Shown piece after piece: positions 3,687 through 64,000 of a DNA stretch of 64,000 nucleotides. The stretch comes from an archaeon. Its GTDB lineage: Archaea > Nanobdellota > Nanobdellia > Woesearchaeales > GW2011-AR15. The position numbers and the translations under genes were made by a program. Numbering within the stretch: position 1 is the stretch's first letter; each line of letters begins with the position of its first letter. The stretch is taken from contig JABHXU010000017.1 in NCBI GenBank assembly GCA_018657065.1, forward strand, positions 43,067 to 107,066, in the 5' to 3' direction. The notes beneath the pieces are model-generated. The model had not been told where the DNA came from. It did not search any database and worked only from the letters and a program-made list of their open reading frames with translations.

Positions 3687-4742
3687 TTAGGTAATCTTTC
3701 TATTTTTAACATAGAAACCCAAATTTGGAATATCGTTTCCAAAACCTCTTAGATTTAAATTAGCTACATTGACATCATAAAGTTGAGAAGCTCCACGAAC
3801 ATCACCATTTGTGTCAAATAGTCCCATCTCACCATAAGTAATATCAAAAAGTTGAATAGGATCAAGATTGTACTCCTCTGCAGTTTCACCTACAGAAACT
3901 TCCATTAAGGTATTTAACGCATTGTTTGAAGTGTTTGCGTTAATAGGTAACTTTACTCTTTCATGTAAATCTTGAATATATTCGTCCTTAACTTTTACAA
4001 TTACGTATCGAGCTCTATTTAAACCCAAATATCCTTCTGTTGATCCTGCACTAATATCATCAGATCTTTGGTTTGGTGTTGCTTTTGTTGGTTCATAATA
4101 ATCATTAATTGTTAAAACTTTGTCTGAAGCTTCACTAACTCTCATTCCAACAACTGTGGGGTTGTCTCCAAGAAGGATAGCATTGACTAATGACTCATAT
4201 ATACTACTAAATATAACTGCTTTAACACCACCACCATAATAGTCTTCTCCAAATTTCATGTTAAGCCATTTATTTTCATCTACTATTTCTAATGCAGTTC
4301 TTAGGTCATTGCTTCTTCTATCAGTCATTGTAAAACCATTGTTCATGAAAATTTTTTTTTCATCGGTAGAAAAAACAAGAGTGCCTTCACGTTTGTCATT
4401 TTCAATATCAACATGAGTAAAAGGATGGGGAAGTGTAGTTGGTTGTTTTGTACCTTCTTGAAGTGCATAAATAGCATAAGGTAAAGTAGATTGGGTATCT
4501 TTTGAAAAAAAAGAGTCTGTGATGTCTCCAATAGTTCTCGTATTAGGTCCAAACTGCCAATAAGTAGTTGAATCTTCTGGAAGAGTATTATCTCTTAAAA
4601 GAAGTGCAGAATTAATTGTTAGGCCCCCATCTTTATGGTTTTTATCTGATTTTGCGTCACTATAATTTAATTTAACATTTTGAGGATTCATTAAACTATT
4701 AAACAGTAAAGTGGCATGGCTTGCAACAATGTATCTTGACAT
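3687..4742 (-). CDS. Hypothetical protein (351 aa), compositionally GC-richer than its neighbours; possible 5' extension up to about 4897
   Basis: Long ORF with no recognisable domain. The frame remains open about 150 nt upstream of the annotated ATG without an in-frame ATG. An out-of-frame ATG at 4895-4897 (MKRFIKRK...) would become in-frame by +1 A in a short A-run. Confidence 0.5.
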   Translation of the reverse strand: MSRYIVASHATLLFNSLMNPQNVKLNYSDAKSDKNHKDGGLTINSALLLRDNTLPEDSTTYWQFGPNTRTIGDITDSFFSKDTQSTLPYAIYALQEGTKQPTTLPHPFTHVDIENDKREGTLVFSTDEKKIFMNNGFTMTDRRSNDLRTALEIVDENKWLNMKFGEDYYGGGVKAVIFSSIYESLVNAILLGDNPTVVGMRVSEASDKVLTINDYYEPTKATPNQRSDDISAGSTEGYLGLNRARYVIVKVKDEYIQDLHERVKLPINANTSNNALNTLMEVSVGETAEEYNLDPIQLFDITYGEMGLFDTNGDVRGASQLYDVNVANLNLRGFGNDIPNLGFYVKNRKIT

Positions 4743-4974
4743 ATCACCGATGTCTACACCATAATCAACAGGTTGTTGAAATAAGGGATTTAATTCTACT
4801 AACTTATCAATTACTTTTACTGGTGGATTAAGTTGTGGACCTTGGACTGGACTTATTTTATGTTTTCTATTCTTTTTCTCTTTATAAATCTTTTCATTTT
4901 TACCACTCTTTAATGGTGAAAATAATTAAATACCAACATTTAAGTATAAAAAACTCCTATATTATAAGGGGAAA

Positions 4975-5547
4975 ATGTCTAGAGTCAAAAGAAAAAAACA
5001 AAGAAAACATTGGAAATATTCCAAAAAATTTAGTCGAGAACCTGCATTAGTTGGATATATTTTTCTAGCTGTTTTACTCGTTTTTACAATGATTTCAAAA
5101 AATCCATTACTTTTATTTTTAATGGTAACATTATTTTGTTCAATTATTAATTATCAAACTAATATTACAACAGTTAGAATTAATCCAGAACCTGAGTTAT
5201 TTTTTAGTTTGCTTTTAACTCGAGTTATTGGATTAAAATATAGTTTAATTATGCTTCTTATTCCTACATTATTTATTGATATCTACACTGCTAGGTTAGA
5301 TAAAGATACCTTTGTATCTTTTATTTTAACAATTATTATTAATCATATTATGTATATTTTTCCAACATTTAATTTTGTAATTTTAGGAGTTACATTAGTT
5401 TCAATAAAATTTATTGCAGGACTAATGATAAATATGGCAATGAATATTTCAATTCAAGAAATTTTTTTTGAACATATTATAGGATTTGTAATTAATTTAT
5501 TGACTTTTCTTGCTTTTGGCAATATCATTTTAAATCTATTCATTTAA
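4975..5547 (+). CDS. Hypothetical polytopic membrane protein
   Basis: Basic N-terminus followed by 5-6 predicted TM helices. Confidence 0.4.
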   Translation: MSRVKRKKQRKHWKYSKKFSREPALVGYIFLAVLLVFTMISKNPLLLFLMVTLFCSIINYQTNITTVRINPEPELFFSLLLTRVIGLKYSLIMLLIPTLFIDIYTARLDKDTFVSFILTIIINHIMYIFPTFNFVILGVTLVSIKFIAGLMINMAMNISIQEIFFEHIIGFVINLLTFLAFGNIILNLFI

Positions 5548-5556
5548 CTAGTTTTT

Positions 5557-6213
5557 ATGAAACTAAAAACAGGGGATGGATCTGAAACATTATATAGTGA
5601 AGAATACAGTGAATATTATCATTCTAAATCTGGTGCTGTTCAAGAATCTGTTGAAAAATACGTTAAACCTTGTAAAATAATTGAATTAGCAAAAAAAGGA
5701 TTTATTTCAATATTAGATATTGGTTTTGGTTTAGGTTATAATGCAATTGCAGCAATTGATATGGCAAAAAAAGCAAATCCAAAAGTAGAAATTGAAATTC
5801 TTAGTTTCGAAAAAGATTTGCAGCTAGAAAAATTAAAGGATCTTAAAAATGGTTTAAAGAATTATGATATTATAAAAAAACTTGAATATGATCCAATAAC
5901 AAAGAGTTATCATTATGAAGATAGTAATATTTTTTTAAGAATAAAAATTGGAGATGCAACTAAATTAATTAAATCAGTTCCAAAAAAATTTGATGCTGTT
6001 TTTCAAGATGCTTTTTCTCCTTCAAAAAATCCAGAATTATGGACAAAAGAATATTTTACAAATATTTCAAAATTAATGAAGAAAAATGCAATTTTAGCTA
6101 CATATTCTTATGCAAGAAAAGTAAGGGAAAATTTAGCATTAGCTGGATTAGAAGTTTATGATGGTCCAATTATTGGGAGAAGAAGTCCATCTACTCTAGC
6201 ACGTAAAATTTAA
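5557..6213 (+). CDS. SAM-dependent methyltransferase, MnmC/MnmD-like (DUF752 family)
   Basis: ILDIGFGLGYNA (motif I) and DAVFQDAFSPSKNPELWT match the FLDGFAPAKNPxMW signature of the tRNA mnm5U methyltransferase domain. Confidence 0.6.
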   Translation: MKLKTGDGSETLYSEEYSEYYHSKSGAVQESVEKYVKPCKIIELAKKGFISILDIGFGLGYNAIAAIDMAKKANPKVEIEILSFEKDLQLEKLKDLKNGLKNYDIIKKLEYDPITKSYHYEDSNIFLRIKIGDATKLIKSVPKKFDAVFQDAFSPSKNPELWTKEYFTNISKLMKKNAILATYSYARKVRENLALAGLEVYDGPIIGRRSPSTLARKI

Positions 6214-6234
6214 AAGATCCAATTACTCTAATTA

Positions 6235-9063: not shown

Positions 9064-9126
9064 GGTATATATTATTTTTAATTAACAATAAACACCAAAT
9101 CTTTTTAATTTTTACTTAATGAAACT

Positions 9127-9136
9127 TTTATAAATT
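9127..9136 (+). promoter_or_regulatory. Putative archaeal TATA box for the downstream tRNA
   Basis: TTTTATAAAT centred about 27 nt upstream of the tRNA 5' end. Confidence 0.35.
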
Positions 9137-9158
9137 TAGTATTTATCTTTTTATTTAA

Positions 9159-9307
9159 GCCCCTGTAGTGTAATGGATAGCACGTAAGATTGCGGCAAGT
9201 GGTGCGTCGATTGATACCGCACCGTGTACTATCGAACAGGTTCGACAGTACTAACTTTCAAAATTTGCAAAAATCTTGAAATCGGAGTTCAATTCTTCGC
9301 TGGGGCG
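9159..9307 (+). tRNA. Intron-containing tRNA, tentatively tRNA-Arg(GCG), with about 77-nt intron in the anticodon loop
   Basis: Hand-folded. Acceptor GCCCCTG/CTGGGGC has one T-T mismatch. D arm GTGT/AATGGATA/GCAC. Anticodon stem TAAGA...TCTTG is split by 9196-9272. T arm CGGAG-TTCAATT-CTTCG; discriminator G. The intervening segment forms two strong hairpins (GGTGCG/CGCACC and GTACTATCGAAC/GTTCGACAGTAC). Confidence 0.6.
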
Positions 9308-9601
9308 TATTATTTTCAAGTAAAAAGAAAGTAATAAATCCTTATCCGTACATTTATAAAGGCATAAATCATTATAGAGGATAGGTGAGAACTTATGGCA
9401 GTAAAATATTTTATGAAAATACCTAAACCAGTAGAAGAAACAGATAAAAAACTTGATAAATCAGAAAGTAAAGTTATCTTAGATAATTAATTTTCTTTTG
9501 AAGGTAATTTTTTTGTTAGAATCTTTAATTCTTTGAAGTAGTGTTTCTTAATTTTTCACTATAGCTAATCTTTTATAAGGCATGAAGTTAACCTTATATG
9601 T

Positions 9602-10255: not shown

Positions 10256-10466
10256 TAAAATAAGGATTTAACTACAAAAGTAATTAAGTATTTTTTAATT
10301 TTTGTACCCAAAAAAACATTTTTAAACATGATAATTCTTACTTCTTTTAGATTACCTTGATATAATACTTAATCTTGATGTTTTTAATAATGTTTTTTTT
10401 TTCAAAATTTTAATATATTATCTAGAATTTTTGATAAATTAAAAAAAAGAATTAAAAACTTTTTAA

Positions 10467-11513: not shown

Positions 11514-11517
11514 TTTT

Positions 11518-12590
11518 TCACCTATATGTTTTATTAAAGTAGTAGGATTCTTGATGTAATTTCAAAAATATTTTACTTGGGTCATTTAAACTTGGGATAT
11601 TCATTATTGTATTAATTTGTTTAATGTTTATTTTTCCATAATGTAAAAGATGCAAACAACTTGCATTTTGGATGAAATTTTTTACATCTATATAACCTTT
11701 TAGGTAAACATAGTCTTTTGTAAATGCTCCAGGTTTAGAAGTATTACATAATCCTCGTTTAGCACGTAGAGTCATAAGCCAAGAACTTTCTTTTGAAAAA
11801 TAATTTAATAACTCATTATATGTTTCTCTAAAACTAGTATTTAATGCATAATGAACAGCAAGAACACGTCCAGCATATCCTTTTAAAACTCGTTTGGATA
11901 ATCCACCAATTTTTTTTCTTTATATAAAGCAAGGCCTTCTTCAGTTGATTCATATTTAGCAAAACCAATTGAAAACATTTTATAAGGTTGCATTTCTCCA
12001 CAAACAGATCTTAAAACATGTCCATATATTTCATGAGCTATTAATCTATCAACTTGTATTTTTGTAAACATATCATTTTTTTTAATATAGACTGTTTTGT
12101 TTGTTGGGTTTACCATAGCTTTTGCTAAAATTGGTGCTTCAAGAACTGTCCATTTATTTGAAAATAAAGAAATTTCATTTAAAAACAATTTTTGAACAAC
12201 AGAACTAGGTATTGAACCTTTAGTAGTTTCACGGGTTTTGCTTGGAACTCTAGTGATATAGATTTTTGCTTTTTCAATTAATTTTTCATTAGGAAAACCA
12301 TATGCTCTCTTTGAAAAATTAGTAAATTTTTTTGTACCCAAGAATTTTCGCATTAATAATTGTGCTCTTAATTCTTTTCCTTTGGCTTTCATAAGTTGAT
12401 CAATAGGTCTATATCCATAAGAAATGCTTTTTAATAATTTAAATGAATATTTAACTGGATTATAGGTGAATTGTGGGTTGTATGTTTTTGAAGCAAAAAA
12501 TTTAGATTTTTCACTATTTAAATTAGATGGATTAAAATGTTTTAAATCAATTGTTCTTGAAATTTTTGCAAGTTTTTTATCTGCTATCAT
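11518..12590 (-). pseudogene. DUF1704 / QEGLA-motif HExxH metallopeptidase-like gene, split by a frameshift in a T8/A8 homopolymer (11910-11917)
   Basis: N-terminal ORF 11883-12590 carries IAHEIYGHVL (HExxH) and TEEGLALY (QEGLA-like), then ends. The C-terminal continuation (…KGYAGRVLAVHYALNTSFRETYNELL… then ORF 11518-11775) is in the +1 frame. One additional A in the A8 run would fuse them into about 360 aa. Confidence 0.65.
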
Positions 12591-13069
12591 TTATTTGACT
12601 ACCTTGTTATTTTCAATATGTTCTAATGAACTTTAGTTTTAATATTTATTGTTTATTTTTAGTAACGAAAATATAATATGATGTTTAATGAAATAGAATT
12701 TTTTATAATAAGAAAGTTTAATTTATTTTTCTATTGATTAAATATTTAAATAGGCTAAGTAAATATGAATTTATGGTACTTATTAATTTTCTAAGAAAAC
12801 TTGGTATTTTTAGATTTGGTATGAAGAAAGGTAAATATACTAATGGAAAAAATAGACCTACGGAATTTCAAATGAATAGTGTTTATGATGAAAAAAAAGA
12901 TTTAATTAGTTCTAAAAAATAATTTTTCAAATAAATCATACATAAAATACCTTTAATTTTAGCATAACTGTTTTTTTTTGAATTATATAATGTTGAGGAT
13001 AAATATTTGAAAATCAATCTAGAATTTTTTTTATAATCTTTATATATACATTGCACTTAATCTTTTTTT

Positions 13070-17132: not shown

Positions 17133-17820
17133 TTATACTTTTTCTCCTTTATTTAAACCAAGTAGAAATTGCCATAATGGTTCTTTTTTAGGCACTTTAC
17201 GTTCTTTTTCCACTTCGCTTTTCTCTACAACTGTTTTTGTTACTGTTTTATCTTCAAAGACTTCTTCATAATTACATTCAGGTGTTGTAGGTCCTTTAAC
17301 AAGTGTATATTCTCCTTTAACAGTGTCTCCAGATTTACAAATATCACTTGTGAATTCATATATGTATGATGTTCCTGATTGAATTTCAACTTCTTGTTCT
17401 TCAACAGGGAAATTTTTTCCATTTACATTAAACGTATATTTGTAAGTCCATTTTCCAGATGTATCAGCCATATTAGTGATTTTTATTTCAGCGTAACATC
17501 TATGATCTTTACCATAGGGATCAACAAATGGTGACAATGGGTGAGGTTCTTCTCTAACCTCTGCAGGTAAATCTACACATACTTCTTTTTCACCTAATGA
17601 AACTTTTTCAATCTCTTGTTTTTCTACTTGCGTTTCTACTATTTCAGTGTATGTTTCTAATGCTTCATAAGGAACTCTGATTGCAACTAGTAATAGTAGT
17701 ATTGCAATGAAAATAACAGGTACTGAAACTTTAGCTTTTAGATGATCATGAACTGTTTTTTTAGTTTCAGGTTTTTTTTCTTTTGTAGTTTTTGTACTGG
17801 ATTTCTTTTTTTTTTGCCAT
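17133..17820 (-). CDS. Signal-anchored (type II) membrane protein with Cys-containing extracellular domain; 5' end disrupted by a frameshift at an A10/T10 tract
   Basis: The track ORF (17133-17537) begins at a TTG. The same frame is open about 280 nt further upstream and encodes a Lys-rich N-terminus plus TM helix VSVPVIFIAILLLLVAIRV. An ATG at 17818-17820 sits one nucleotide out of frame; the T10 run is at 17806-17815. Confidence 0.5.
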
Positions 17821-18010
17821 GAATAGGACCTCCTCTTAAGATAAATATTACTTATTAGTTATATAAATTTTATTATTAATTTTAGTTAATATTGAAGTTT
17901 AACTCCAGTATATCTTTAGTAAAATATATAAGTAAATATATATTTCGCAAATTATATTTTGAAGTTCGAAAGACAAATTATTTAAACCCAAAATATTTTA
18001 GGTAAGTCAT

Positions 18011-18289: not shown

Positions 18290-18740
18290 AAAATACATGT
18301 TACTACTTTAAAATGCTCTTTTAACGAAACATTTAAATATAAACTGCCTATTTCTACATAATCAGGTAATACTTTGTGGGTATTATTTCAACGGGGGTAG
18401 TTAACGTTTATTAACAATTAACAACGTGATTATTCTCTATGCAAATCGTGGTGAAATTTGCATCCTAAAAAAAAGAGGTTCTTAACTAAAAAAGAGTGTG
18501 ACATAATAGATTAAAGTATAGTAACGCAACTGAAAAATCAAACAGCGTTACTAATAAGCAAAAAAATTTGCTAAATAAACTTTAGACTGATGTCGGGGTG
18601 AAACTCATATATAATTAGGGGGTGTAGAAGATTTACACATTCTTTCAACACTTGATGGATATTCAAGTAGAATTGAAATAGCAACCTATGAAAGGGGTGC
18701 TCAGTTAAAAGATAATTCAATTACTAATGAGAGAATTGTT

Positions 18741-21700
18741 ATGTTTGGCGCTGACGAAGCAACTTATTGGTCAGATGAAACAGAATTATTTTTTGAAAGA
18801 TCAGTAGTTTGGTTAACAGAATTTGTAGATACAGATGGTGACGGAACACCAGACTTCGAAGATAATTGTCCTTGTTCATATAATCCAGGTCAAGAAGATG
18901 CAGATGGAGATGGACTAGGAGATATTTGTGATAATTGTCCAGTTAATTATAATCCAAATCAAGCAGACAATGATGGAGATACATTAGGAAATGTTTGTGA
19001 TATCTGTCCAGATGACACAGGTAATGATGCAGATAGTGATGGTTTTTGTTACCCAGTTGATTGTGTCGACACAGATAATACTATTTATCCAGGTGCGGAT
19101 GAAACTGTTTGTAATGGAATAGATAATGATTGTGATATCCTTTTAGATGAAGATTACGAAGAGGTTTCTTGTGGAGAGGGTGATTGTTCTGGAATGACTT
19201 CTTGCGAATTTGGTGAAATTTTTTGTAAAAATCAAGAAATAAATCAAGCAGGAAGTGATTGTGGAACTTGTTGTCAATGTGAAAATGATAATGATCCTCA
19301 AGAAGTATATGATGGAGCTCAAGATTTAGATTGTTCAGGTAATAATTTGCCTGGAATTTCAACTTGTAATAGTGATCCAGATAATAATCCAATGACATAT
19401 GATACTGCTGTTGGTTTTATTAGTGAATGCAGTGCAATTGATGTGTGTACAGAGGGAGAATATGAATTTAATCATGAATGTGATGTAGACTCTTGTGATG
19501 CAGAATGTGAAGATGGAAATTTCGAAGATGGAGATGGATGTAGTTCATCTTGTATTTTAGAAATTTGTGGAGATAATATTTTACATGAAACATTAGGAGA
19601 AGAATGCGACGATGGTAATACAGTCGATTTAGATGGTTGTGATGCAAGTTGTGTTATTGAATACTGTGGAGACGGTATTGATAATGATGCAGACAATGAA
19701 GAATGTGATGATGGTAATGATGTCGATGACGATGCATGTTCAAATTTATGTGTAACTAATTACTGTGGGGATTCAATCACTAATAATGGTGAAGAATGTG
19801 ATGATGGTAATAACGCAGACGGAGATGGATGTTCCGCATTATGTTTAGATGAATATTGTGGAGACGGTATTGACAATGATGCAGACAATGAAGAATGTGA
19901 TGATGGTAATGACGTAGATGACGATGCATGTTCAAACTTATGTGTAACTAATTACTGTGGGGATTCAATCACTAATAATGGTGAAGAATGTGATGATGGT
20001 AATAACGCAGACGGAGATGGATGTTCCGCATTATGTTTAGATGAATATTGCGGAGATGGAATACCTCAACCAGGTGAACAATGTGATGATGGTAATAATG
20101 TTAATGGAGATGGATGTGACAGTTTATGTGTTTCAGAAGTTTGTGGGAATGGTATACCTCAATTTGGTGAAGTTTGTGATGATGGTAATTTAGATGATAC
20201 AGATGCATGTTTAAGTGATTGTACGGCACCAGTTTGTGGTGATAGTATTGTATGGTTTGGCCATGAAGAATGTGATGATGGTGCAAATGGGATTGATACT
20301 GATGAATGTACAGATTCATGTACTTTAACTTATTGTGGAGATCAAACTCTTCAAATTTGGAATGGAAATAATGAAGTTGAAGAATGTGATGATGGTGCAG
20401 ATGGAGATGATACAAATACTTGTTATGATGATTGTTCATTTACATATTGTGGAGATTCTATAGTTCAAGATCCAAATGGATACGGAGTTAGTGAAGTTTG
20501 TGATGGCAATTCAATAGTTTGTGAAAACTTTGAAGGATATGCAGGAACAAGAGAATGTCAAAGTTCATGTAGAGGATTCGAAGATTGTCACACTGATGAA
20601 TATTGTGGAGATTCAATTACAAATGGATTAGAAGAATGTGATGATGGTAATAATGTTAATAATGATGGATGTGATGCATTTTGTGTCATTGAATATTGTG
20701 GAGATTCAATTACAAACGGATTAGAAGAATGTGATGATGGAAACAATGATGATGGTGATGGATGTGACGCAAGTTGTTATGACGAAATTTGTGGAAATAA
20801 TATATTGCAATTTGGTGAACAATGTGATGATGGAAACAATGATGATGAAGATGGATGTTCTTCTCAATGTGTTATTGAGTCATGTGGAGACACAATTGTT
20901 CAACTTGGATTAGGTGAAGAATGTGATGATGGTCAAGGAGATAACACTGATTCATGTCTAGATACATGTATGGACGCTGAGTGCGGAGATACATTTGTAT
21001 GGGATGGACAAGAAGAATGTGATGACGGAAACACAATCGATTTAGACGGTTGTGATGCAAGTTGTGTTATTGAATACTGTGGAGACGGAATAATCAATAA
21101 TGTTAATGAAATCTGTGACGAAGGTATTGATAATGGAGAACCTCTTCATTGTGACGCAGAATGTGGTGGAATAACTCTTCCAGTTTGTGGAAACTCTTAT
21201 CTTGAAGAAGGAGAGGAATGTGATGATAGTAATGTAGAAAATAATGACGGTTGTAATTCCGTTTGTGTCCTAGAAATATGTGGTGATGGAATTGTTCAGG
21301 ATGGTATTGGCGAAGAATGTGAATACGATAACCAATGTAATGATCAAGATTATCATACTGCAGACTATTGTGTAGAATGTGGTTGTGAAAATCCAATTAT
21401 TTGTGAAGATGAATGTCTTCCAACTAGTGAAGATATTTGTTCAGAGGATAGTGACTCAATCTTAGAATGTAGAAATGATTTTGATTCAGATCCATGTTAC
21501 GAATATGGTCCTAAATATGATTGTACAAATAACGAAGCATGTACAGTTATAGATCTAGATGAAGCATATTGTGGATCTTGCCAAACAAATTGTGGAGGAA
21601 AATGTTATTACACTCAAACAATTTATGGTGAATGGTCATGCGGCGAAGGAGATTGTTTATACACACCAGTAATTGAGTTTATTGACATTGATAATGATTA

Positions 21701-22295
21701 CATTGATGATAGATGTGATGATTGTATTGATCTAGATAAGGATGGTATTTGTGACCATGAAGATACTTGTCCAGATGTTTATAATCCAACAAACGTAGAT
21801 ACTGATGGAGATGGTGTAGGAAATGCTTGTGACTATGATAGAGATAATGATGGGTATGATGCATCAGTAGATTGTCATGATTGGGACAAAGATATTAATC
21901 CAGGTATGAAAGAAATTAAGGGAGACGGGAAAGATAATGACTGTGATCCACTAACTTCAGACAAAGAAATCAAAATTAGAAGTCAAGATTTATTGCTTGG
22001 AACAAAAATCATGAACGAAGACACAGCAATTGATGATAGAGAATTAAGAGTAGCTGTTTATGTCAAAAACAAAGGAAGTAAAACTGCTAAAAATATTAAA
22101 CTTAAAGCAACACTTCTAGATGAATATGTTTCTGACGAAACAATTATGCCAACTCTTAAAGCAGGAAAAACTAGTAGAGTAATCTTAAATATTCCTCTTT
22201 ATGGTGGAGTAATGCCAGATGAATACTACTTAAGAACTACATTAAGTGTTGAAACAGTAAAAAAAGCAAAATATAGTCAAGTGTTATTGCACTGA
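18741..22295 (+). CDS. Giant cysteine-rich repeat protein: thrombospondin type-3-like Ca-binding repeats + about 20 Myxococcus-type cysteine-rich repeats ([11 protein letters not shown]...DGC...C) + C-terminal CARDB-like domain
   Basis: 1184 aa. [38 protein letters not shown] (TSP3-like). Reiterated YCGDxI..[15 protein letters not shown](S/D)xxC units. TSP3-like repeats again near the C-terminus, then a beta-rich tail. No N-terminal signal peptide at the annotated ATG. Confidence 0.8.
   Translation: [1184 protein letters not shown]
19665..20048. repeat. Near-perfect tandem duplication, 2 x 192 bp, inside the cysteine-rich repeat gene
   Basis: 19665-19856 and 19857-20048 differ at about 5 nt. 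Both encode [64 protein letters not shown]. Confidence 0.8.
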
Positions 22296-29733: not shown

Positions 29734-30591
29734 TCATCTACTGTACCTTTGAATGGGCCAGAACTTTGAAGAGATTTTGAAGCAACGTGCTGCAAATTTT
29801 CCCCTATTCTCAAGATCTTTATAATGTTGTTGTTCGGCAGCAATATAACCAGCCATATAACTGTCACCAGCACCAATTGGATTAATTACTTCTACGGGAA
29901 AAGCAGGAACTTGTATTTTTTGAGAATTTGTATAAATTAGTGATCCTTTTTGACCTTGTGTTACAATAATTGTTTTAGCGCCAGAATCTAACAATTTTGC
30001 TGCACCTTTGTCAGTTTGTTGTTTGCCAGAAATTATCACTAATTCATTAGCATCTAAAAAAACATTATCAACATATGGTAATATTTCATATACGTCTTGA
30101 TTAAATTTTCTTATAAATTCTCCAGATTGAGGGTATGTGTTTTGCCCTTCAATATATCTAATCATTCCTTGAGGCGCAAGAGAAACAGGAGTTCCGTTTA
30201 ATTTTTTAACTAATTCTAATCCGATTTGACTATGAAACATTGGTCCGAGAACAATATGGTCAAGATCATCTAAATCTGAAGTAGAAATATCTTGAGGTAG
30301 TATTGAATTATCATAAACAATTGCTTGGTCATATCTTTTATCAGGCTCATTTTCAGGAGTAATATTTGTGTGAGTTGTTGTTCCCTGTTTTAATAAGTGA
30401 ATTATGTTTCCTTTAAAAGATTCTGGAAACTCAGGTACAGTTTCTCCACAAGATCCAAAGATTGTTACATCAACACCTAAAGAATCTAAAGCACATCCAG
30501 AATAAAACGTAACTCCTCCAGCTTGTTCTATTTTTTGATTTCCATAAATATTTACATCTTGGATAATTGGACCAATAACTCCTACTTTCAT
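29734..30591 (-). CDS. PfkB-family carbohydrate/nucleoside kinase (ribokinase-like)
   Basis: C-terminal NPIGAGDSYMAGY (GAGD anion-hole motif) and N-terminal GG..FY di-Gly region. Confidence 0.7.
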   Translation of the reverse strand: MKVGVIGPIIQDVNIYGNQKIEQAGGVTFYSGCALDSLGVDVTIFGSCGETVPEFPESFKGNIIHLLKQGTTTHTNITPENEPDKRYDQAIVYDNSILPQDISTSDLDDLDHIVLGPMFHSQIGLELVKKLNGTPVSLAPQGMIRYIEGQNTYPQSGEFIRKFNQDVYEILPYVDNVFLDANELVIISGKQQTDKGAAKLLDSGAKTIIVTQGQKGSLIYTNSQKIQVPAFPVEVINPIGAGDSYMAGYIAAEQQHYKDLENRGKFAARCFKISSKFWPIQRYSR

Positions 30592-30627: not shown

Positions 30628-31167
30628 CTAAACTTCACTTTTGACAATTTTAATCATTTCATTGACATAAAGTAATGTCTCCATAATAATTCTATGAGAT
30701 TTTTCAATATCTCCTAAAATTACACCAAATGATTCAATTTGAATTAGATCTTCTTTAACTAATTCTTCAATTTCAGTTAAATTTTCTTCTTCAGGCCAAA
30801 ATTTGTTCATTATTCTTTTAATGAGTTTTTCTAGTTCTTCAAAATGGGCCAAGCTATCAACTTTATGTTCTTCTCTAAGTAACGATGGGTGAAGCATTTT
30901 TTTTGCTTTAATATGTTCATCAACAATTGATTTAGAAACTTCTTTAAATTTATGAAATGAAAAATATAATTTTTCTTCAAGTTGAGCTTCTTTATGATGT
31001 TCTTCAATTAATTTTTCAGTCATTTCGTGAAGATATTCTTTTTTTTGTGTAGTTATATGTTTTTTTTTTGCTGCTTCTTTAAGTGTGTTTAAAATTACAC
31101 CCATAGTTATTAAGACATTGTGCTCTTCTTTTAGAATTGTTAGTGATTTGACCTCGTGCTCTCCCAT
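30628..31167 (-). CDS. Hemerythrin HHE-like cation-binding domain protein (tentative)
   Basis: Repeated H...E/HH...EE..LF spacing (HEMTEKLIEEHHKEAQLEEKLYF; EEHKVDSLAHFEELEKL). Weak assignment. Confidence 0.35.
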   Translation of the reverse strand: MGEHEVKSLTILKEEHNVLITMGVILNTLKEAAKKKHITTQKKEYLHEMTEKLIEEHHKEAQLEEKLYFSFHKFKEVSKSIVDEHIKAKKMLHPSLLREEHKVDSLAHFEELEKLIKRIMNKFWPEEENLTEIEELVKEDLIQIESFGVILGDIEKSHRIIMETLLYVNEMIKIVKSEV

Positions 31168-35147: not shown

Positions 35148-35326
35148 ATAATTGTAAAAGGTTTTTAGAGTATATAATGATTTTGAAATTAGTTTTTTTT
35201 AAATTTATTTTTCTGTAAATTAGGCATAAAAATGAAGTGATTTCTGAAAGAACTAATATACAAAAATGTATACTAAGATAACTAAATAGTAACCTTTATA
35301 TACTAGTTATACCATTATTCTAAAAT

Positions 35327-39374: not shown

Positions 39375-39530
39375 ATGAAAGTTACTGTAGTTAATGTTAG
39401 ACTACCTAAAAAAATAGTAGAGTGGATAGATTCTCTTGTAGAAAAAGATATTTATAATTCTCGTAGTGAAGCGATTCGTGATTTTTCTAGATCTTATGTA
39501 ATTGACAACAGGGGTGAGTCTAATAACTGA
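39375..39530 (+). CDS. Ribbon-helix-helix (CopG/Arc-like) DNA-binding protein, 51 aa
   Basis: MKVTVVNVRLPKKIVEWIDSLVEKDIYNSRSEAIRDFSRSY is a canonical RHH beta-strand + two helices. Below the track's size cutoff, so found by eye. Confidence 0.6.
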   Translation: MKVTVVNVRLPKKIVEWIDSLVEKDIYNSRSEAIRDFSRSYVIDNRGESNN

Positions 39531-39783
39531 TAAAATTGTTAGTGTTAGAATGCCTAAAGCTTTAGTTATTGAGCTAAAAGAAGTAGCTTCAAAAAATCAT
39601 TATTTAGATGTTAGTGAAACTATTCGTTCTCTTCTTAGAAAAAGATGGTTAGAGCAAAAAAAGCCACATAAAGCTAAATTAAATCAAATTAAGCAAAATC
39701 TTTCTGGAATTTCTGATCCTAAACAACTTAGGGCATTAAAACAAACAATTAAACTTTTGGAGGAAATAAATGAGATTCAATAA
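39511..39783 (+). CDS. Second ribbon-helix-helix (CopG-like) protein
   Basis: ...IVSVRMPKALVIELKEVASKNHYLDVSETIRSLLRKRWLE. Start is ambiguous (TTG 39502 / GTG 39511 / ATG about 39549). Overlaps the start of the next gene. Confidence 0.5.
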   Translation, partial: GVSLITDKIVSVRMPKALVIELKEVASKNHYLDVSETIRSLLRKRWLEQKKPHKAKLNQIKQNLSGISDPKQLRALKQTIKLLEEINEIQ

Positions 39784-52737: not shown

Positions 52738-53121
52738 TTAATAATAATTTTTCTTCCCAGAACCATCTCTATGATATTTACCAAATTCTGTTACTTTTTT
52801 AGCAGTTTCTTTATCAATGCACGGTCCTTCAACACACATTCTTATACCCATTGGATCAACGCAACAACTTCCACATATTCCATAACCACATTTCATGTAT
52901 CTTTCTAAAGATAATTGACAATCCACTTTAAATTCATCACAAATTTCAACAACTTTTTTCATCATTATTTCAGGACCAACTGTATAAACTATATCTATAT
53001 TACTATTGTTTAGAACTTCTTTAAGTTTATTGGTTGTAAATCCACTAAATTCAAATGAGCCGTCATCAGTACAATAATGTCTTTTAATTGAATCATGATA
53101 TTCTTTATCCATATATAACAA
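52738..53121 (-). pseudogene. pyrK: Truncated dihydroorotate dehydrogenase electron-transfer subunit (PyrK C-terminal about half only)
   Basis: Retains ...GAKTKELLLYMDKEY...TDDGSFEFSGF and the FeS-binding CGYGICGSCCVDPMG...C..GP tail. The FAD/NAD N-terminal roughly 130 aa are absent (an in-frame stop lies 30 codons upstream). No pyrD nearby. Confidence 0.55.
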
Positions 53122-53234
53122 TAATTCTTTAGTTTTTGCACCAATAATTAACTCAGATTTTATTATGCTTATCTTTAATTATACTATACGCTGCAGTAGG
53201 AATACAAAATGCAAAAAAAGATAATGATTATAAA

Positions 53235-53945
53235 TTGCCTAAATATACAGATAATGTTGTGATAATTTTAGTTTTTATCTCTATTTTAATTTCATTGAAA
53301 CACTGGATATTGTTTTTAACTACATTTGGGATATTAGTTTTAGGACTAATATATAATTTTATATCTAGGTATTTTTTGTTTATGGACGTGACTGTTGTGA
53401 CAGCAACACACCATGCAATTCCAATGTTTAGTACAGCATTACTACTAAAACTTAGTTTTATTGAATCAATTAAAATTAGTATATTTGTTTATATTGTATA
53501 TTGGTTGTTTGTTCATATAAAGAATTTAAAAGGTATTGGAGAAGATAAGCAGAGAAATTACAAAACAATTGGTACTGTTTTTAATGCTCCAAAAAAAATA
53601 GGATTAATTTTTTTTGAGCTTTCTTTTATTTTGATGTTTATGGGTTATTTTCTTTTTAATTTTAAAATAAGTTATTTATTTTTTATTGTAGTCCTATATA
53701 TTCTTAAAACAATTATTACTCAAAATATAATTCTAGGAAACTGCGAAAAAGCTCTTAATTTTCTAAGATTTATGAGTGTTTTTTTTGTTTATTCAATTGT
53801 ATTACAATTTAATTTATCAACATACACATTTTTGTTTTGTTCAATTCCAATAGTTTCTTCAATGGTTGTTACATCAAAAGAACTTGATTTCAAATTTATT
53901 TCAAATATTAAATTTTGGACTGAGCAAAGTAGCTATCAAAAATGA
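53235..53945 (+). CDS. Polytopic membrane protein (possibly prenyltransferase-like; unverified)
   Basis: 7-8 TM helices. Stop overlaps the start of the downstream FAD oxidoreductase (ATGA). Confidence 0.4.
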   Translation: MPKYTDNVVIILVFISILISLKHWILFLTTFGILVLGLIYNFISRYFLFMDVTVVTATHHAIPMFSTALLLKLSFIESIKISIFVYIVYWLFVHIKNLKGIGEDKQRNYKTIGTVFNAPKKIGLIFFELSFILMFMGYFLFNFKISYLFFIVVLYILKTIITQNIILGNCEKALNFLRFMSVFFVYSIVLQFNLSTYTFLFCSIPIVSSMVVTSKELDFKFISNIKFWTEQSSYQK

Positions 53946-56851: not shown

Positions 56852-56888
56852 GGTATTTTTAAAATTAATTATATTAATAAATCTTTAC

Positions 56889-57400: not shown

Positions 57401-58063
57401 ATGAAGAGTTTTCTAAGAACAGTAGATCCAACAGTATTTATTTCTCTGAAGAGTAAAAATATCACTTCATTAAATGATTTAAGTGGAAAAACTATTGCCA
57501 GTATTGGAGCTCAAAAAACAATAATGAAAATTATATTACAAAAAAATGGTTTCAATCATAGAAATTCTGAATTTATTCCAAAAAAATATGGAATCAACTC
57601 TCTATATGATGAAAATGTAGACCTTTTATGAGGAGTATCCATTAATGAATTAATTGAAATTCAATCTAACAATTTAGATGTTAACATTTTATATCCAAAG
57701 GATTATGGATTTGAGTCACAATATAATGTGATATTTACAACAAAAGAGTTAGTGAAAAAGAATCCAGAATTAGTTTTTTCCTTTGTTCAAGCAACACTAA
57801 AAGGATGGCAATATGTGTTAGATAATCCAACTAAGTCACAAAATTTTGTTTTTGAGTATGATTCAGGTTTAAATGTTAGGCATCAAGAATTTATGTTTAT
57901 TGAATCTTTAAATTATATTAATCCTGAAAAATCAGTAGAATTAGGAACAATGACTAAAGAAAAATGGCAAAAATTGTACAATGAGTTAGAATCAATCAAT
58001 GAAATTGAACAATCATTTAATGTTGAAGAAATGTTCACAAATGAATTTATAATAAAAGAATAA
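57401..58063 (+). pseudogene. NMT1/SsuA-like ABC substrate-binding protein remnant, N-terminally truncated and interrupted by an in-frame TGA (57629-57631)
   Basis: Track ORFs 57401-57631 and 57728-58063 are in the same frame, separated only by the TGA. ...SLYDENVDLL*GVSINE... TGG (Trp) is likely at that position in the family. Confidence 0.5.
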
Positions 58064-58069
58064 GAAAAC

Positions 58070-59836
58070 ATGGCTAAAAGAATATTAAGCAACATCAGTA
58101 TTTCAAAAAAATTGATTTTGATATTCTTAGCTATAGTCTTGTTTTCAACATCAATTAGTGGATATTTGGGTTATTTAAATAGTAAAAAAATAGTGGAAGA
58201 AAGAATTCAAGATCAATTGCTTAGTGTTTTAGTTTTAAAAGAAAATAGTATGGAAAATTTTTTTAAATTATTAAGAGAAGACATTGAAAATTTTGCAGGA
58301 AATAAGGAAATTAAAGCTTATTTTGAAGAATTTCACTTTTCAACTAATAAGGTTAATCCAGAATTGGAAGAGTTAAAAGAAGAAGAAATTGAATTATATT
58401 TTCGAGAAGAACTAATCCATCATGCACATTTTTTAGAGATATTTTTATTAGATGTAAATGGGAAAATTGATATTTCAACAGAAGCAAATCAAAAAGGAAA
58501 AATAAAAAGTTCAGATGATATTTTTTTGAAAGGAAAAGAAAGAACATATATAAAAAATATATATTACTCAGTTTCCAGGCAAGAACCAACATTAACAATT
58601 TCAACTCCAGTCTTAGCAGAAAATAATAAAGTTTTAGGAGTTCTTGTTGGAAGGGTGAATTTAAATGAACTATCAGCTATTTTAGAAGAAAATTCCGGAT
58701 TAGGTAAAACAGGTGAAACCTATCTGGTGAATAAATTTAATTATGCAACAACAAATTTATTAGAAAATAGCGATAAAACATTGAAAACAATTATTACAAC
58801 GGATGCAGTCCAACATTGTTTAAATCGTGAGAATGCAAATTTGCATGATTCACCTTATTTTATGTCTGGTTATAAAAATTACAATAATGATCCAGTTATA
58901 GGAAGTCACAGATGGATCGATAATAGAGAAGTATGCATAATAACTGAAATTAATCAAGCTGAGGCTTTTACTCCAATTTATAGATTAAGAAAAATTGTTA
59001 TTTATATCTCTTTTATTTTAACATTTGTTACATTTATTATCGCAATAATATTTTCTCGAACAATTAGAGATCCAATTCAAAAATTGCAAAAATCAGCTGA
59101 AAAAATTGCAACTGGAGATTTGGATTCTTCGATTTTAATTGAATCAAATGATGAGATTTGGTATTTAGCAAAAACATTGGATGATATGAGAATTAAATTA
59201 AAAGAAACATTGGATGAAATTAGAAAACATCAAAATGAACTTCACACAGTTGTAAATGAAAAAACTGAAGATTTAAATAAAAAACTTCAGGAACTTGAAG
59301 ATACAAAATTAGCAATTATTAATATTTTAGAAGACACTGATTATGCTAACAAAGATCTTATGAATACAAGAGACGCTTTAAAAAATAATATTAAAGAATT
59401 AAAAGCAATGGATAAAACTAAAGATGAATTTTTATCTATTACTGCTCATGAACTTAAGACTCCATTGACAAGTATTAAAGGTTTTATCGGATTATTAAAA
59501 AACGAAAAAGTTATGCAAAATATGGTCCAACGAAATAAATATTTTGATATTATTATTGAGGATACAAAAAGACTTGGGCAATATTCAGCAAAAAACCAAT
59601 TATTATATGATGAAACAATAAGTAAAGTAGTTGATGTAAATCCATCAGATACTGCTTCAGCAATATTAAGATATAATACCTTTTCTGAAGAATTTGAAGT
59701 CACAGTTCATTGGCCAGGATTTGGATGGTTCCCTAGTTTTAATAATCAAGATTTTCTTTATTTAAAATCTTTTGAAGGATATTATTTTGATCAAACAGGA
59801 GGTGCGAATTGGACACATGATCCAGAAAAAAATTAA
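58070..59836 (+). CDS. Sensor histidine kinase-like protein: TM, Cache-like extracellular domain, HAMP, HisKA; no recognisable HATPase_c
   Basis: H-box LSITAHELKTPLTSIKGFIGLL. HAMP ...IRDPIQKLQKSAEKIATGDLD.... The C-terminal 130 aa lack N/G1/G2 boxes. Confidence 0.6.
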   Translation: MAKRILSNISISKKLILIFLAIVLFSTSISGYLGYLNSKKIVEERIQDQLLSVLVLKENSMENFFKLLREDIENFAGNKEIKAYFEEFHFSTNKVNPELEELKEEEIELYFREELIHHAHFLEIFLLDVNGKIDISTEANQKGKIKSSDDIFLKGKERTYIKNIYYSVSRQEPTLTISTPVLAENNKVLGVLVGRVNLNELSAILEENSGLGKTGETYLVNKFNYATTNLLENSDKTLKTIITTDAVQHCLNRENANLHDSPYFMSGYKNYNNDPVIGSHRWIDNREVCIITEINQAEAFTPIYRLRKIVIYISFILTFVTFIIAIIFSRTIRDPIQKLQKSAEKIATGDLDSSILIESNDEIWYLAKTLDDMRIKLKETLDEIRKHQNELHTVVNEKTEDLNKKLQELEDTKLAIINILEDTDYANKDLMNTRDALKNNIKELKAMDKTKDEFLSITAHELKTPLTSIKGFIGLLKNEKVMQNMVQRNKYFDIIIEDTKRLGQYSAKNQLLYDETISKVVDVNPSDTASAILRYNTFSEEFEVTVHWPGFGWFPSFNNQDFLYLKSFEGYYFDQTGGANWTHDPEKN

Positions 59837-60605: not shown

Positions 60606-62347
60606 AAAAAACATTAATTTGGTTAACAATAGGATGTTTGATTTTAATTAGTGTTATTGCTCCACCTCCAACAGAAAAAACAATAAAAGGAGAAATTAGA
60701 CAGATAAATGGTATAGATCAAGTAGAATCAGGTCTAGAAGTTTATATTAATAATACTAATACAACCTACAACAAAACAACTCAAACGTATGGTCCTCCTG
60801 TAATGCCTGGATTATATTCTACGACAATATTGGCAAGCGAAGGTGATGTGATTTATATTGAATCACACAATGCAACTAATTGGGGTTATGTGTATGGTAT
60901 TGTAGGCAAAACTCAATTAGATATTAATGTTAATTTAAACAGGACAAGAGCATCTGAAGCTATTGTTTTAATTGAAATTCCTCAAAATAATTCTAATTTG
61001 AATACTTCAATGGATTTAAACGTAACAGTAGATATAACTATTGTAGGAGGAAATGGAATTAATTGCGAAGCAATACTTAATTTTAGTGTTGGAGGAATTT
61101 TTGGGTTAGAAGAAGGTGAAACATATGTTCATGATTTAGGAAATGTAAATAGAGGTGTAACGGCTACAGAAGTTTGGCAAATAAAAGGACTAATAGATGG
61201 AGAAACAAATATTTCAGTGCACGCTGAATGTGCATCAGATAGGCGTATTTTTGAAGATAAAAATACAGATTACGTTTATAATTTAACAAATTTAGATGTT
61301 AGTCCACCAATAATTGAAATACAATTCCCTGTTAATAATACAAAATCAAATAATCCTATTTGGATCTATTATAATGTTAGTGAAGAATCTAGTTTAGAAA
61401 ATTGTACTCTGTCACTGAATGATTTAATTGTGAATTTAACAAATGCTCCAAATAAATTGTTTTTACTAAATTTTTCAAATTTACTTTCTACAGGAGAAAA
61501 TAACGCTGAAATAAATTGTAGTGATGATTCCTCTCGTTTTAATATGGGGACATCTGGAATTTTTAATTTTAGTTTGAATAATTTTCCATTTATTTCAAGT
61601 ATTTTTACAGATAATCCAATTAATTTATTGGCAGCAAATAATAAAACAGTATATTGTAATGGGACAGCCACAGATTTAGATTCATTTAGTGATATAGTTA
61701 ATGTCAATGCATCACTTTTCTTTAAAGATTTAAATCCTGAATCAAATGATAATCGCTCAAATAAATATTCTAACACAAGTTGTACTCTTTTAAATCCTAG
61801 TGGAAATAATATAGATTTTATTTGTGGGTTTAATATTGAATATTACGCAAATAATGGAACATGGTATTGTAATGTTAGTGCAATTGATTTAATTAATAGT
61901 ACAAATTCTTCAATTGACTCAACTCTTGTGAATGATTTGCTTGCTTTAAGTGTGACAGATATAATTGATTTTAGAAGTTTAGAACCACTTCAAATAAGTC
62001 CAATTGATGTAGCATCAAATATAACGAATTTTGGAAATGTTCCTATGGATCTTAGTATATATGGATATGCTATGACAGAGGGAGATGATTTGGCTTTAGA
62101 CTGTGTCAAAGGAACTATAGGGTATGAATTTGAAAAGTTTTCAATGTTTGAATATCAAAATTTTAATATCATGCAAGCAATAAATAATTCAGCAAATGCG
62201 GTTTATGTTGATTTTAATCATACTCAAAAGGTTTATGGGGCAGCACAAAATTCCTTTAAATCTTTGTTTTGGAAGCTCCAAATTCCTTTTGCAACTGATG
62301 GTCAATGTAATGGAAAAGTAGTTATTTCGGCTATTACTAATTCTTAA
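60602..62347 (+). CDS. Secreted sequon-rich surface protein (581 aa)
   Basis: ATGA overlap with the upstream gene. Signal peptide MKKTLIWLTIGCLILISVIAPPP. Many N-x-S/T sites. Confidence 0.55.
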   Translation: MKKTLIWLTIGCLILISVIAPPPTEKTIKGEIRQINGIDQVESGLEVYINNTNTTYNKTTQTYGPPVMPGLYSTTILASEGDVIYIESHNATNWGYVYGIVGKTQLDINVNLNRTRASEAIVLIEIPQNNSNLNTSMDLNVTVDITIVGGNGINCEAILNFSVGGIFGLEEGETYVHDLGNVNRGVTATEVWQIKGLIDGETNISVHAECASDRRIFEDKNTDYVYNLTNLDVSPPIIEIQFPVNNTKSNNPIWIYYNVSEESSLENCTLSLNDLIVNLTNAPNKLFLLNFSNLLSTGENNAEINCSDDSSRFNMGTSGIFNFSLNNFPFISSIFTDNPINLLAANNKTVYCNGTATDLDSFSDIVNVNASLFFKDLNPESNDNRSNKYSNTSCTLLNPSGNNIDFICGFNIEYYANNGTWYCNVSAIDLINSTNSSIDSTLVNDLLALSVTDIIDFRSLEPLQISPIDVASNITNFGNVPMDLSIYGYAMTEGDDLALDCVKGTIGYEFEKFSMFEYQNFNIMQAINNSANAVYVDFNHTQKVYGAAQNSFKSLFWKLQIPFATDGQCNGKVVISAITNS

Positions 62348-62777
62348 TTTTTGAAGTTTTTCATATTTTTCTCGACTTATGAATTAATAATTAATTAAAT
62401 AATTAATTTGTTAATGTTGTTAGGTATTAAAATATATTAAAAAGAAAAATATATAAATGAGTTAAAATAATAATTTAAATTATAAAAGGTGAATAACAAA
62501 TTACAGTGATAAATTATAATGAGTTTCTATTTAATTCCTTTTTATTATTAATTATTGTAAATTATTATTTTATTTTAATAATTAAAGAAACGAAATATTT
62601 AAATACTAGTTGATGAATTAATATCATTAATATACAAAAAAATATACTGATCGCTTGAAATCATCAAGCTTCAGAACCGGACACATACAAAAAATCAACA
62701 AAAATCGTTGATTTTTAAGATGCTGAAAATGAAATCATTTTCAAGCATAAATAAAAATGGGGAAAAAGGGGTAAACA

Positions 62778-63320
62778 TTGGAAATTGAGTCTTTGTTCAG
62801 CAGCACTCGGTGGGAGATATTAAGAGAGCTATCAAAAAGAAAATTATCTCCCATGGAGCTTGCTTCATCCCTTAATACAACTTCTGCAAATATTTCACAA
62901 CAATTAAGACTTTTAGAGTTAGGAGGATTAGTAAAAAGTGAGAAAACCTCTAATGTTGACAAAGGTAAACCTAGAGTTATTTATTCTTTAGCTGGTGATA
63001 ATGCATATTTAATTTATGCTGGCCAAGATTTTGCTAATAAGAAACTTGTTTCTTTATCAAATTATCATAAGTTTATGATGAAATCTTGGTTTTTAGATAA
63101 TACAGAACATCATATGTTAATACCTAGAGTCTATGAGGAACTGCAACCTTATCTTAAAAAAATAAAAATAGTTGCAGCTAGCAGTGGTTCAGGTCTTAAT
63201 TTGTATATTGTAGGACAAAAATTTAATTTATCAATAGAAAAAGTGAGGATTAACTTTGTTTCTATTGAAGATTTGAAAAAGAAATCAGATATAGTGATTT
63301 TACATGGTGATATAGAATGA
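62778..63320 (+). CDS. ArsR-family wHTH regulator with C-terminal uncharacterised domain
   Basis: STRWEILRELSKRKLSPMELASSLNTTSANISQQLRLLELGGLV is a canonical ArsR HTH. Confidence 0.6.
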   Translation: MEIESLFSSTRWEILRELSKRKLSPMELASSLNTTSANISQQLRLLELGGLVKSEKTSNVDKGKPRVIYSLAGDNAYLIYAGQDFANKKLVSLSNYHKFMMKSWFLDNTEHHMLIPRVYEELQPYLKKIKIVAASSGSGLNLYIVGQKFNLSIEKVRINFVSIEDLKKKSDIVILHGDIE

Positions 63321-63402
63321 ATACATATGTTAAATTTATCGAGAAATTAGCTTTTAATCAGCTAAAAGCAGCATCTTGTGCTGCTGTTAGGAGGGGTATG
63401 CA

Positions 63403-64000
63403 ATGAAATTAGTAGGAAAAATATATTAGTTTTGACACTCACATTAATGTTAATAGCAACAGTGTTGGGTGCACCAGGAAATTCTACGATTACTGAAGGA
63501 GCTTCAGAAAAAGGACCAAGTAATCCAACAGAGGATACAACAACTGCAGAAGCAGGGAATATTACGCATTTAGATATTGATTGGACTAGAAGAACTGAAG
63601 TTTGGCAAGGTTTTTATGGAAATGTATCAGGATCTATAAGTTTACAAACAGGTGGAGGAGATGTGTTTTATGAATGGAATGCGACTACAATGCAAGGAGA
63701 AGTACTTGCAACAAGAGATTCCATAACAGATTGGAGTGCAATTAATTGTACCAATTCAACTCACTGGGAAACTGAGGAATCTGCACTAAGTATATCAACA
63801 ACGTCAGTAGAAGGAATCAATGAAACTTATGACACAACAACACATGCAGAATTTTCTATTGGTTCAAAAACATTTGATGCAAATACTTGTAGAGCAGTAA
63901 GACCATTTGTAACCGGTGGAGTAGAAGGAGCATTTTATAATATTATGCTTAACACAGATGTTGACACAACAGTATATACAGCAATATTAGCTGAAGATAC
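63403..64000 (+). CDS. Secreted sequon-rich protein, 5' part (continues beyond window); start region frameshifted at an A5 run
   Basis: AGGAGGGG SD, then ATG at 63403 (MKLVGK..) which hits a stop after 8 codons. The +1 frame continues as a signal peptide (..ILVLTLTLMLIATVLGAPGNST..) and stays open to the window end. One extra A in aaaaa (63417-63421) fuses them. Confidence 0.45.

Follow-up and report, generated by a model that had tools for sequence, protein, structure and literature searches.

Single-base frame breaks at poly(A) tracts of an AT-rich Woesearchaeal genome are reproduced between assemblies and probably genuine

In a stretch of 64,000 nucleotides from a Woesearchaeal metagenome-assembled genome (MAG; contig JABHXU010000017.1 of GCA_018657065.1, the whole stretch being called the window in the following), four genes have reading frames that break, or appear to break, at or beside runs of A in the sense strand. 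These are a MATCAP/DUF1704 gene (site 1, A8), a membrane-protein gene (site 2, A10), a secreted-protein gene (site 3, A5) and a gene annotated with 351 amino acids (aa; site 4, A5). According to our analysis, with a probability of about 0.7, the breaks represent genuine one-base indels in A tracts, which would have been generated by replication slippage and fixed in a near-clonal population, and not sequencing errors. At sites 1 and 2 the shift is evident from a comparison with intact orthologues, and the downstream frames of the genes carry no further damage. An initial annotation of the window had assigned the same single-A deficit in a poly(A) run to all four breaks, tentatively in the case of site 4. 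The four runs and, at each of them, a long open reading frame (ORF) in another frame were found at the assigned positions, but the shared deficit did not hold: the frame is corrected by +1 nt at sites 1, 3 and 4 and by −1 nt at site 2.

Reproducibility of the run lengths

The window was compared with 25 loci from other records. These comprised MEGAHIT-style k141 contigs from several analyses of the European Nucleotide Archive (ENA), a low-coverage SPAdes contig from another ENA analysis, three assemblies of the Joint Genome Institute (JGI) and three other NCBI MAGs, all of short-read type. To contig JABHRG010000001.1 of the MAG GCA_018670325.1 the window shows 99.995–100% identity (record coordinate = window position + 43066), and its proteins were found in 74–106 blocks of the public assembly collection. 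One matching scaffold belongs to BioSample SAMN05224527, which is given in the Saanich Inlet compendium as station S3, 120 m depth, September 2009, Illumina HiSeq 2500. About 50 positions with single-nucleotide polymorphisms (SNPs) separate the assemblies, most of them inside a repeat, and the sampled material appears to be one near-clonal fjord population. As the SNPs are so few and concentrated in the repeat, they allow no selection test on the shifted parts of the genes.

Counting the source itself, the sequence was identical in 9 loci from 8 samples at site 1, in 5 loci from 5 samples at site 2, and in 8 loci from 7 samples each at sites 3 and 4. At the consensus level, none of the covering assemblies had a tract-length variant at the four sites; at the level of assemblies, independent data confirm the run lengths as assembled. 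Across all loci only three indels differed from the window, namely an intergenic T9/T10 polymorphism at 12971–12979 (T10 in 4 of 6 assemblies), a 2-bp insertion at 29786 and a 10-bp deletion at 58984 in JGI assembly 3300025660 (locus L010), which splits a histidine kinase gene further. Because the T9/T10 polymorphism was seen, tract-length differences are detectable when they are present.

Most long runs are not associated with a frame break. The window contains 64 A/T runs of at least 8 nt, of which about 42 (8–10 nt) lie in frame inside ORFs, including the A10 tracts at 31060 and 55955, and just 2 of the 64 coincide with a frame break. Hence, three marks of an artefact, i.e. a run length that is not reproducible, an error rate that rises with run length and a one-directional bias to deletions, were all missing. 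Short runs have to be judged differently. With 220 A5 and 248 T5 runs (468 in total, about 1 per 140 bases) and 13.5 A/T runs of at least 5 nt per kb, a stretch of 30–40 nt is likely to hold one. Since A5/T5 runs are so dense, blaming an A5 run for a break is not significant; information is carried by the A8 and A10 tracts alone. A5 runs are, besides, not error-prone on Illumina instruments.

A systematic homopolymer artefact of sequencing or assembly, which had been proposed initially, would account for breaks that all lie at or beside A runs and of which three out of four can be fixed by one more A, and frameshifts at homopolymers are also what 454, Ion Torrent or nanopore sequencing produces through indel errors. 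In contrast to those errors, the frameshifts described here are reproduced in short-read assemblies, go in both directions and do not depend on run length. For each site, the sequence was the same in four to seven further independent samples from different assemblers and centres, and site 2 has an A too many. Also, when a database of 5.8 billion protein sequences was searched with the repaired proteins, neither a full-length near-identical MATCAP protein nor a full-length near-identical site 2 protein was found, nor was there an intact near-identical copy for site 4. Identical runs in independent assemblies, long runs that stay in frame and shifts in both directions together effectively refute the systematic artefact, to which we concede hardly any likelihood. 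The other explanation offered at the outset, namely that the slippage-prone sites are real in an extremely AT-rich genome, survives, though with slippage-dependent expression as no more than a possibility. The GC content is 27.7% (27–28% all along the window).

Frameshifts in the MATCAP/DUF1704 and membrane-protein genes

The MATCAP/DUF1704 gene (Pfam PF08014) lies on the minus strand and is split at 11910..11917, where T8 on the plus strand corresponds to A8 in the sense strand (...TAT AAA GAA AAA AAA TTG GTG...). The upstream ORF of 235 aa (11883..12590, minus strand) ends at a stop 8 codons past the tract, and the downstream part (11518..11919, minus strand; example stretch VLAVHYALNTSFR) follows in the −1 frame with 133 open codons and no secondary lesion. 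In the zero frame the context is GA A_AAA_AAA TTG, a canonical X_XXY_YYZ slippery heptamer. Editing the tract in silico to A9 (+1) or A6 fuses the two parts to a MATCAP/DUF1704 protein of 357 aa, which aligned full-length and without gaps with an intact homologue of 381 aa (P0001) at 69% identity. The alignment is conserved across the junction (EEGLALYKEKKIGGLSKRVLKGYAGRVLAVHYALN in the repaired protein, EEGLAMYKEKKIGGLSKRVLKGYAGRVLAVHYALN in the homologue; junction stretch YKEKKIGGLSKRVLKGY; a further example of a junction/downstream peptide of the repaired proteins is EEGLALYKEKKIGGLSK), and the downstream part is better conserved than the N-terminal part. Among the 120 homologue matches listed, most were full-length (about 335–460 aa) and nearly all covered at least 83% of the query, while the few shorter entries include the 235-aa fragment of the window itself; the labels of named homologues are mostly Woesearchaeota or Nanoarchaeota. 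The gapless alignment bears out the earlier proposal that this gene is broken at the A8 and fixed by one additional A, and on the strength of homology we regard the frameshift at site 1 as proven and confirmed.

On the contig of the intact homologue P0001 (JGI 3300072015), an ATP-grasp gene (GSH-S/RimK-like) next to the MATCAP gene is called as 65 + 258 aa and not as 348 aa. This split may point to a separate frameshift event in the lineage of P0001.

At site 2, T10 on the plus strand at 17806..17815 corresponds to A10 in the sense strand of a gene on the minus strand and occupies codons 2–5 (ATG GCA AAA AAA AAA GAA...). The start region (17818..17833, minus strand) consists of the ATG at 17818–17820, a 7-nt spacer and the Shine-Dalgarno (SD) sequence GGAGGT at 17828–17833. 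The main ORF (17133..17805, minus strand) encodes a membrane protein with a K-rich N-terminus, one transmembrane (TM) helix and a Cys-containing domain (example downstream stretch VPYEALETYTEIVETQVEK), and it has 107 open codons without ATG, GTG or TTG, a stretch that includes the sole TM helix. In simulated edits the frame was restored by A9 (−1) or A12 (+2), while A11 (+1) gave a product of just 27 aa, so that this site carries one A in excess and not a deficit. All three homologues (P0123–P0125; 47–52% identity, 231–244 aa) begin with MAKKKSK, and M1-A2-K3-K4-K5 is invariant. Their DNA has the same arrangement of SD, spacer and ATG, with a Lys run that is interrupted by AAG (ATGGCAAAGAAAAAATCA, ATGGCTAAGAAAAAATCT), and the genomes that carry it have a GC content of 32–33%. 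With the three MAKKK homologues as evidence, the frameshift at site 2 can be taken as homology-proven and confirmed; the break that had been predicted at the A10 thereby stands, but with the direction reversed.

Start regions of the secreted-protein gene and of the 351-aa gene

Site 3 (63390..63429, plus strand) comprises an SD sequence GGAGG at 63390–63394, an ATG at 63403 after 8 nt, A5 at 63417–63421 (codon 6) and an out-of-frame TAG at 63427–63429, giving the leader ATG AAA TTA GTA GGA AAA ATA TAT TAG. One added base converts it in silico to the N-terminus MKLVGKNILVLTLTLMLIATVLGAPG... of the secreted protein encoded by the main ORF (63432..64000, plus strand, running on to about 64100 in the record). 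This ORF has two possible in-frame starts, TTG 63432 and ATG 63447, neither of which has an SD sequence, and its upstream extension of 27 open codons alone is within chance. In an exhaustive search, the family had 724 members with an N-terminal signal-like segment of the type 'MK..K/R + about 20 hydrophobic residues + A/G-x-P'. In many homologues of about 235–250 aa, residues 2–17 already align upstream of both in-frame starts, and a neighbouring paralogue of 251 aa has the same layout with 'MK..K' and about 20 hydrophobic residues. A charged n-region followed by about 20 hydrophobic residues is reproduced by the repaired N-terminus only, and judged by these comparisons site 3 is probably a true shift.

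At site 4, a short ORF on the minus strand (4853..4897; MKRFIKRKRIENIK) with ATG at 4895–4897, 14 codons and a stop at 4853–4855 contains T5 at 4873–4877 (A5 in the sense strand). It overlaps the main ORF, which extends from stop to stop over 3687..4925 (minus strand) and has its first in-frame ATG at 4742, past 61 open codons. One additional nucleotide anywhere in 4856–4894 (about 40 nt) joins the upstream ATG to this start-less stretch, which has a chance of about 0.005 per gene. In a related Woesearchaeal contig (L015, 11590–12581), the 190-aa and PTH2 genes are conserved but the site 4 gene is not present between them, and it looks like a lineage-specific insertion. The frame break at site 4 is plausible but unverified.

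For both start regions, the constellation described in the initial annotation is present. At site 3, one more A does work and is moderately supported by SD sequence, ATG and the family N-terminus, but the attribution to the A5 is not significant; at site 4, an out-of-frame ATG does overlie a start-less stretch, but the A5 is not singled out from other positions.

Run statistics and position of the frame breaks

A/T runs of at least 8 nt occur 1.0 time per kb in the window and 0.35–0.45 times per kb in the relatives with 32–33% GC, i.e. they are two to three times more frequent. In coding sequence, sense-strand A runs of at least 9 nt are depleted 2.4-fold: 7 were observed, whereas synonymous codon shuffles predict 16.7. 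Runs of up to 8 nt show no depletion against the same shuffles. The share of AAG among Lys codons flanked by two Lys is 23% vs 9%, with a flanked class of only 13 codons. The genome seems to be under pressure from slippage.

When the frameshift scan was widened by 10 kb on either side (about 84 kb in all), a fifth case was detected 8 kb to the right of the window in a gene for a Na+/H+ exchanger (window-equivalent position about 71930–72080, 19150–19300 of locus L023). In its stop-to-stop ORF, the Pfam domain is matched from residue 18 onward, 39 codons are free of in-frame ATG, GTG and TTG, and an out-of-frame ATG AAAAA TTT (L023, 19176) lies over the start-less stretch. The gene needs −1 nt, or an ATT start 6–7 nt past a GGGGGA motif.

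Other candidates were rejected. These were hidden internal frameshifts in the same-strand gene pairs of 999/1366/279 aa, 262/581 aa, UbiA/383 aa and 183/977 aa, in which the downstream genes have a plausible N-terminus of their own (signal peptide, TM helix or Rossmann motif) and ATGA-type overlaps, as well as a tandem ribbon-helix-helix pair at 39375–39783 and the Smr gene near a tRNA gene, which are not frameshifts.

Of the five breaks, four are found no later than codon 14, although the first 15 codons hold only 6.3% of the A/T runs of at least 5 nt. This corresponds to a probability of about 8e-5 if all five cases are counted (4 of 5), of 1e-3 for the window (3 of 4) and of 0.012 when the count is limited to the three best-supported cases (2 of 3); the values come from a small sample that includes two unverified cases. 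Early shifts may be cheaper as they waste short peptides, they may be bypassed more easily, or they may act as throttles. In the start-proximal cases, an SD sequence and an ATG directly precede the shift, the shifts go in both directions, and three of the proteins are membrane or secreted proteins, the fourth (site 4) being uncharacterised. That start-proximal A-tract shifts form a tolerated or selected expression throttle in this DPANN archaeon is nevertheless unlikely in our view. If it were so, ribosome slippage in early elongation or stuttering of RNA polymerase would keep the amount of full-length protein low, possibly depending on conditions, and would cost no more than a waste peptide of 8–17 residues.

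Decaying genes nearby and further observations

It had also been suggested that a histidine kinase, a pyrK and an NMT1-type substrate-binding protein (SBP) gene may be truncated only in appearance. This was not the case, as no edit of an A run repairs any of them. The histidine kinase of 588 aa (58070–59836) has dCache and HAMP domains, a HisKA domain that breaks off at profile position 52 of 66, and a tail of 84 aa. No HATPase domain was found in any nearby frame by tblastn with the catalytic domain of another kinase, which matched the HisKA part alone, and Pfam agrees. The ORF that follows codes for a separate secreted protein with its own SD sequence and signal peptide. With the 10-bp deletion in JGI 3300025660, the kinase gene is visibly degrading within the population. 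The NMT1-type SBP gene (57401–58063) lacks the first ~73 profile positions, has an in-frame TGA at 57629 (DLL*GVS) and is a decaying gene, not an A-run problem. In the region 52738–53945, pyrK is reduced to its C-terminal Fe-S domain, and the divergent UbiA-like gene matches the Pfam profile UbiA from position 75 onward, which suggests that a single deletion may have removed the 5′ ends of both genes and the intergenic region between them. The region is losing genes by several routes besides A-tract shifts.

An Rfam scan of the window yielded two tRNAs only. One match, at 9159–9307, is 149 nt long, which implies an intron in the tRNA gene, a trait of archaea. In one MAG (GCA_018665325.1, L007), whose genome is otherwise near-identical, 11 SNPs are clustered within a 110-bp intergenic stretch at 35201–35311. 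The gene for a DUF4215 protein of 1184 aa (18741–22295), a large Cys-repeat/CARDB protein without recognisable signal peptide, is preceded by a start-less open stretch of 42 codons (18615–18740). Its repeat region at 19724–19994 holds most of the SNPs between assemblies, and a repeat collapse is probable there.

Proposed mechanism and alternative explanations

We propose that strong AT pressure caused replication slippage in A tracts and that the resulting one-base indels became fixed in the population. The genes would thus be freshly broken, and full-length protein might be formed only via slippage on the same tract. On the A10 of site 2, stuttering of RNA polymerase or sliding of the ribosome could produce a mixed pool of products including a frame-restoring fraction. 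A few percent of full-length MATCAP might arise at site 1 if the ribosome slips by −1 on A_AAA_AAA or if the transcript gains an A. Because structure is missing at site 1 and the shift is absent from other lineages, this would be an adventitious 'savior' slippage rather than programmed recoding. For the A5 runs of sites 3 and 4 a rescue by slippage is unlikely; these genes would use downstream in-frame starts (TTG 63432 or ATG 63447, and ATG 4742, respectively) or be dead.

Several points weigh against this reading. Rescue of a full-length product at sites 1 and 2 is something that we purely infer. The closest relatives carry intact genes, so that the shifts are not conserved and could mark young pseudogenes, and the agreement between samples is reproducibility, not evolutionary conservation. 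Downstream of site 1 no stimulatory RNA structure was found (106-nt fold of −14.1 kcal/mol vs a shuffle mean of −14.5 kcal/mol, z = 0.16), and no SD-like element was noticed upstream. A8 is shorter than the tracts that usually allow efficient transcriptional slippage, and A5 falls far short of them. Site 3 has alternative starts in frame, and at site 4 the break is without support by homology, no homologue of the protein being present among the 5.8 billion sequences.

Plain young pseudogenes, in which the indels are real, nothing useful is made and gene loss in a shrinking genome has taken its first step, are the alternative to which we give appreciable, though minority, weight. The decay of the neighbouring genes (NMT1-type SBP, histidine kinase, pyrK, UbiA-like) by other routes fits with this, as do the intact orthologues in relatives, the missing frameshift-stimulating structure and the lineage-specific site 4 without homologues. 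A random frame, however, meets a stop about every 12 codons, whereas the four downstream frames are fully open over 133, 225, ~210 and ~400 codons, and in MATCAP the part behind the break is the best-conserved one. The A10 tract and the A_AAA_AAA heptamer are slippery in every system tested, and a bias to the first 14 codons is unexpected for neutral knock-outs. It is also possible, albeit rather doubtful, that sites 3 and 4 do without a frameshift and that translation simply begins at TTG 63432 or ATG 63447 and at ATG 4742. Starts in frame exist there and are used by gene callers, the 27-codon stretch at site 3 is explicable by chance, and TTG 63432 is located 2 nt past the stop of the 8-codon leader ORF in a geometry of termination and reinitiation. 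Against this, the SD sequence GGAGG stands 8 nt upstream of ATG 63403 and not before either in-frame start, the N-termini of the site 3 homologues and paralogue are matched by the repaired version only, and 61 start-less open codons at site 4 are hardly to be expected by chance (~0.005).

Two further explanations ascribe a function to the tracts. Phase-variable contingency loci, in which tract length would switch membrane or surface proteins within the population, have their classical layout at site 2 (codons 2–5), site 3 (codon 6) and in the Na+/H+ exchanger gene: as in bacteria, a homopolymer lies in the first codons of a membrane or secreted protein, and the frame is set by its length. Polymorphism in tract length does occur in the population at the intergenic T9/T10. 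At the four sites, in contrast, no assembly has a length variant, and proteins of the ON length are missing from the database for sites 1, 2 and 4. The tracts consist of A and not of the usual G/C, most of them are too short, A5 in particular for useful switching rates, and MATCAP is a cytoplasmic enzyme, which leaves phase variation quite improbable. Selected programmed ribosomal frameshifting at site 1, similar to that of fucA1 or dnaX, would explain the perfect zero-frame A_AAA_AAA heptamer, which resembles the A-AAA-AAT of fucA1, with a stop 8 codons downstream. As the downstream structure is lacking, homologues of 69% and ~47% identity do not have the shift and the truncated product of 235 aa has no obvious role, we consider programmed frameshifting very improbable. 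Genuine A-tract indels from replication slippage remain our preferred reading.

Discussion

The closest known phenomenon is the occurrence of frameshifts in poly(A)/(T) tracts of Buchnera and Blochmannia. In Blochmannia vafer, eight genes have poly(A)/(T) indels, transcriptional slippage was shown for endosymbiont genes, with ~30% full-length transcripts reported for frameshifted ones, and dnaX of Blochmannia pennsylvanicus keeps its frame with an interrupted tract (PMC3017870). The likeness to the archaeal sites includes an AT-rich small genome dense in A/T tracts and, at sites 1 and 2, single-base indels within tracts of genes that show no other damage and whose orthologues are in frame. All samples of the one near-clonal population retain the shifts, which the nearest other lineages do not have, and the relatives have an interrupted site 2 tract in frame, like dnaX of B. 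pennsylvanicus. In contrast to the endosymbionts, the tracts (A8, A10, A5) are shorter than the typical 9–12 nt, the phenomenon was observed here at the level of DNA, an archaeal RNA polymerase would be involved, conservation between species was not seen, and most cases lie at the extreme 5′ end. We know of no measurement of tract slippage by an archaeal RNA polymerase.

For the geometry of site 1, the closest archaeal precedent is fucA1 of Sulfolobus solfataricus. In both, an all-A heptamer in the zero frame is the place of a −1 shift that divides an archaeal gene into two ORFs, and the full-length homologues have Lys at this position. For fucA1, however, experimental expression, a flanking putative stem-loop and rare codons are on record, whereas site 1 has no structure and was recognised from its sequence. 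fucA1 is expressed through A-AAA-AAT with an efficiency of 5–10% (PMC1616953) and is the only experimentally established archaeal −1 frameshift (PMC1616953; review PMC8211752).

In practical terms, the assembled MAG is correct and polishing should leave the frameshifts in place; the genes should be annotated as frameshifted rather than tacitly repaired or divided into fragments. To our knowledge, the archaeal genes for which recoding has been demonstrated are still very few. Saanich Inlet offers metagenomes with matched metatranscriptomes (62) and metaproteomes (68), so that slippage of an archaeal RNA polymerase or ribosome on A tracts is open to study in nature. For the biology of the organism, the finding would extend to a DPANN archaeon of free water the endosymbiont pattern in which genes break first at poly(A) tracts, maybe buffered by slippage of polymerase or ribosome.

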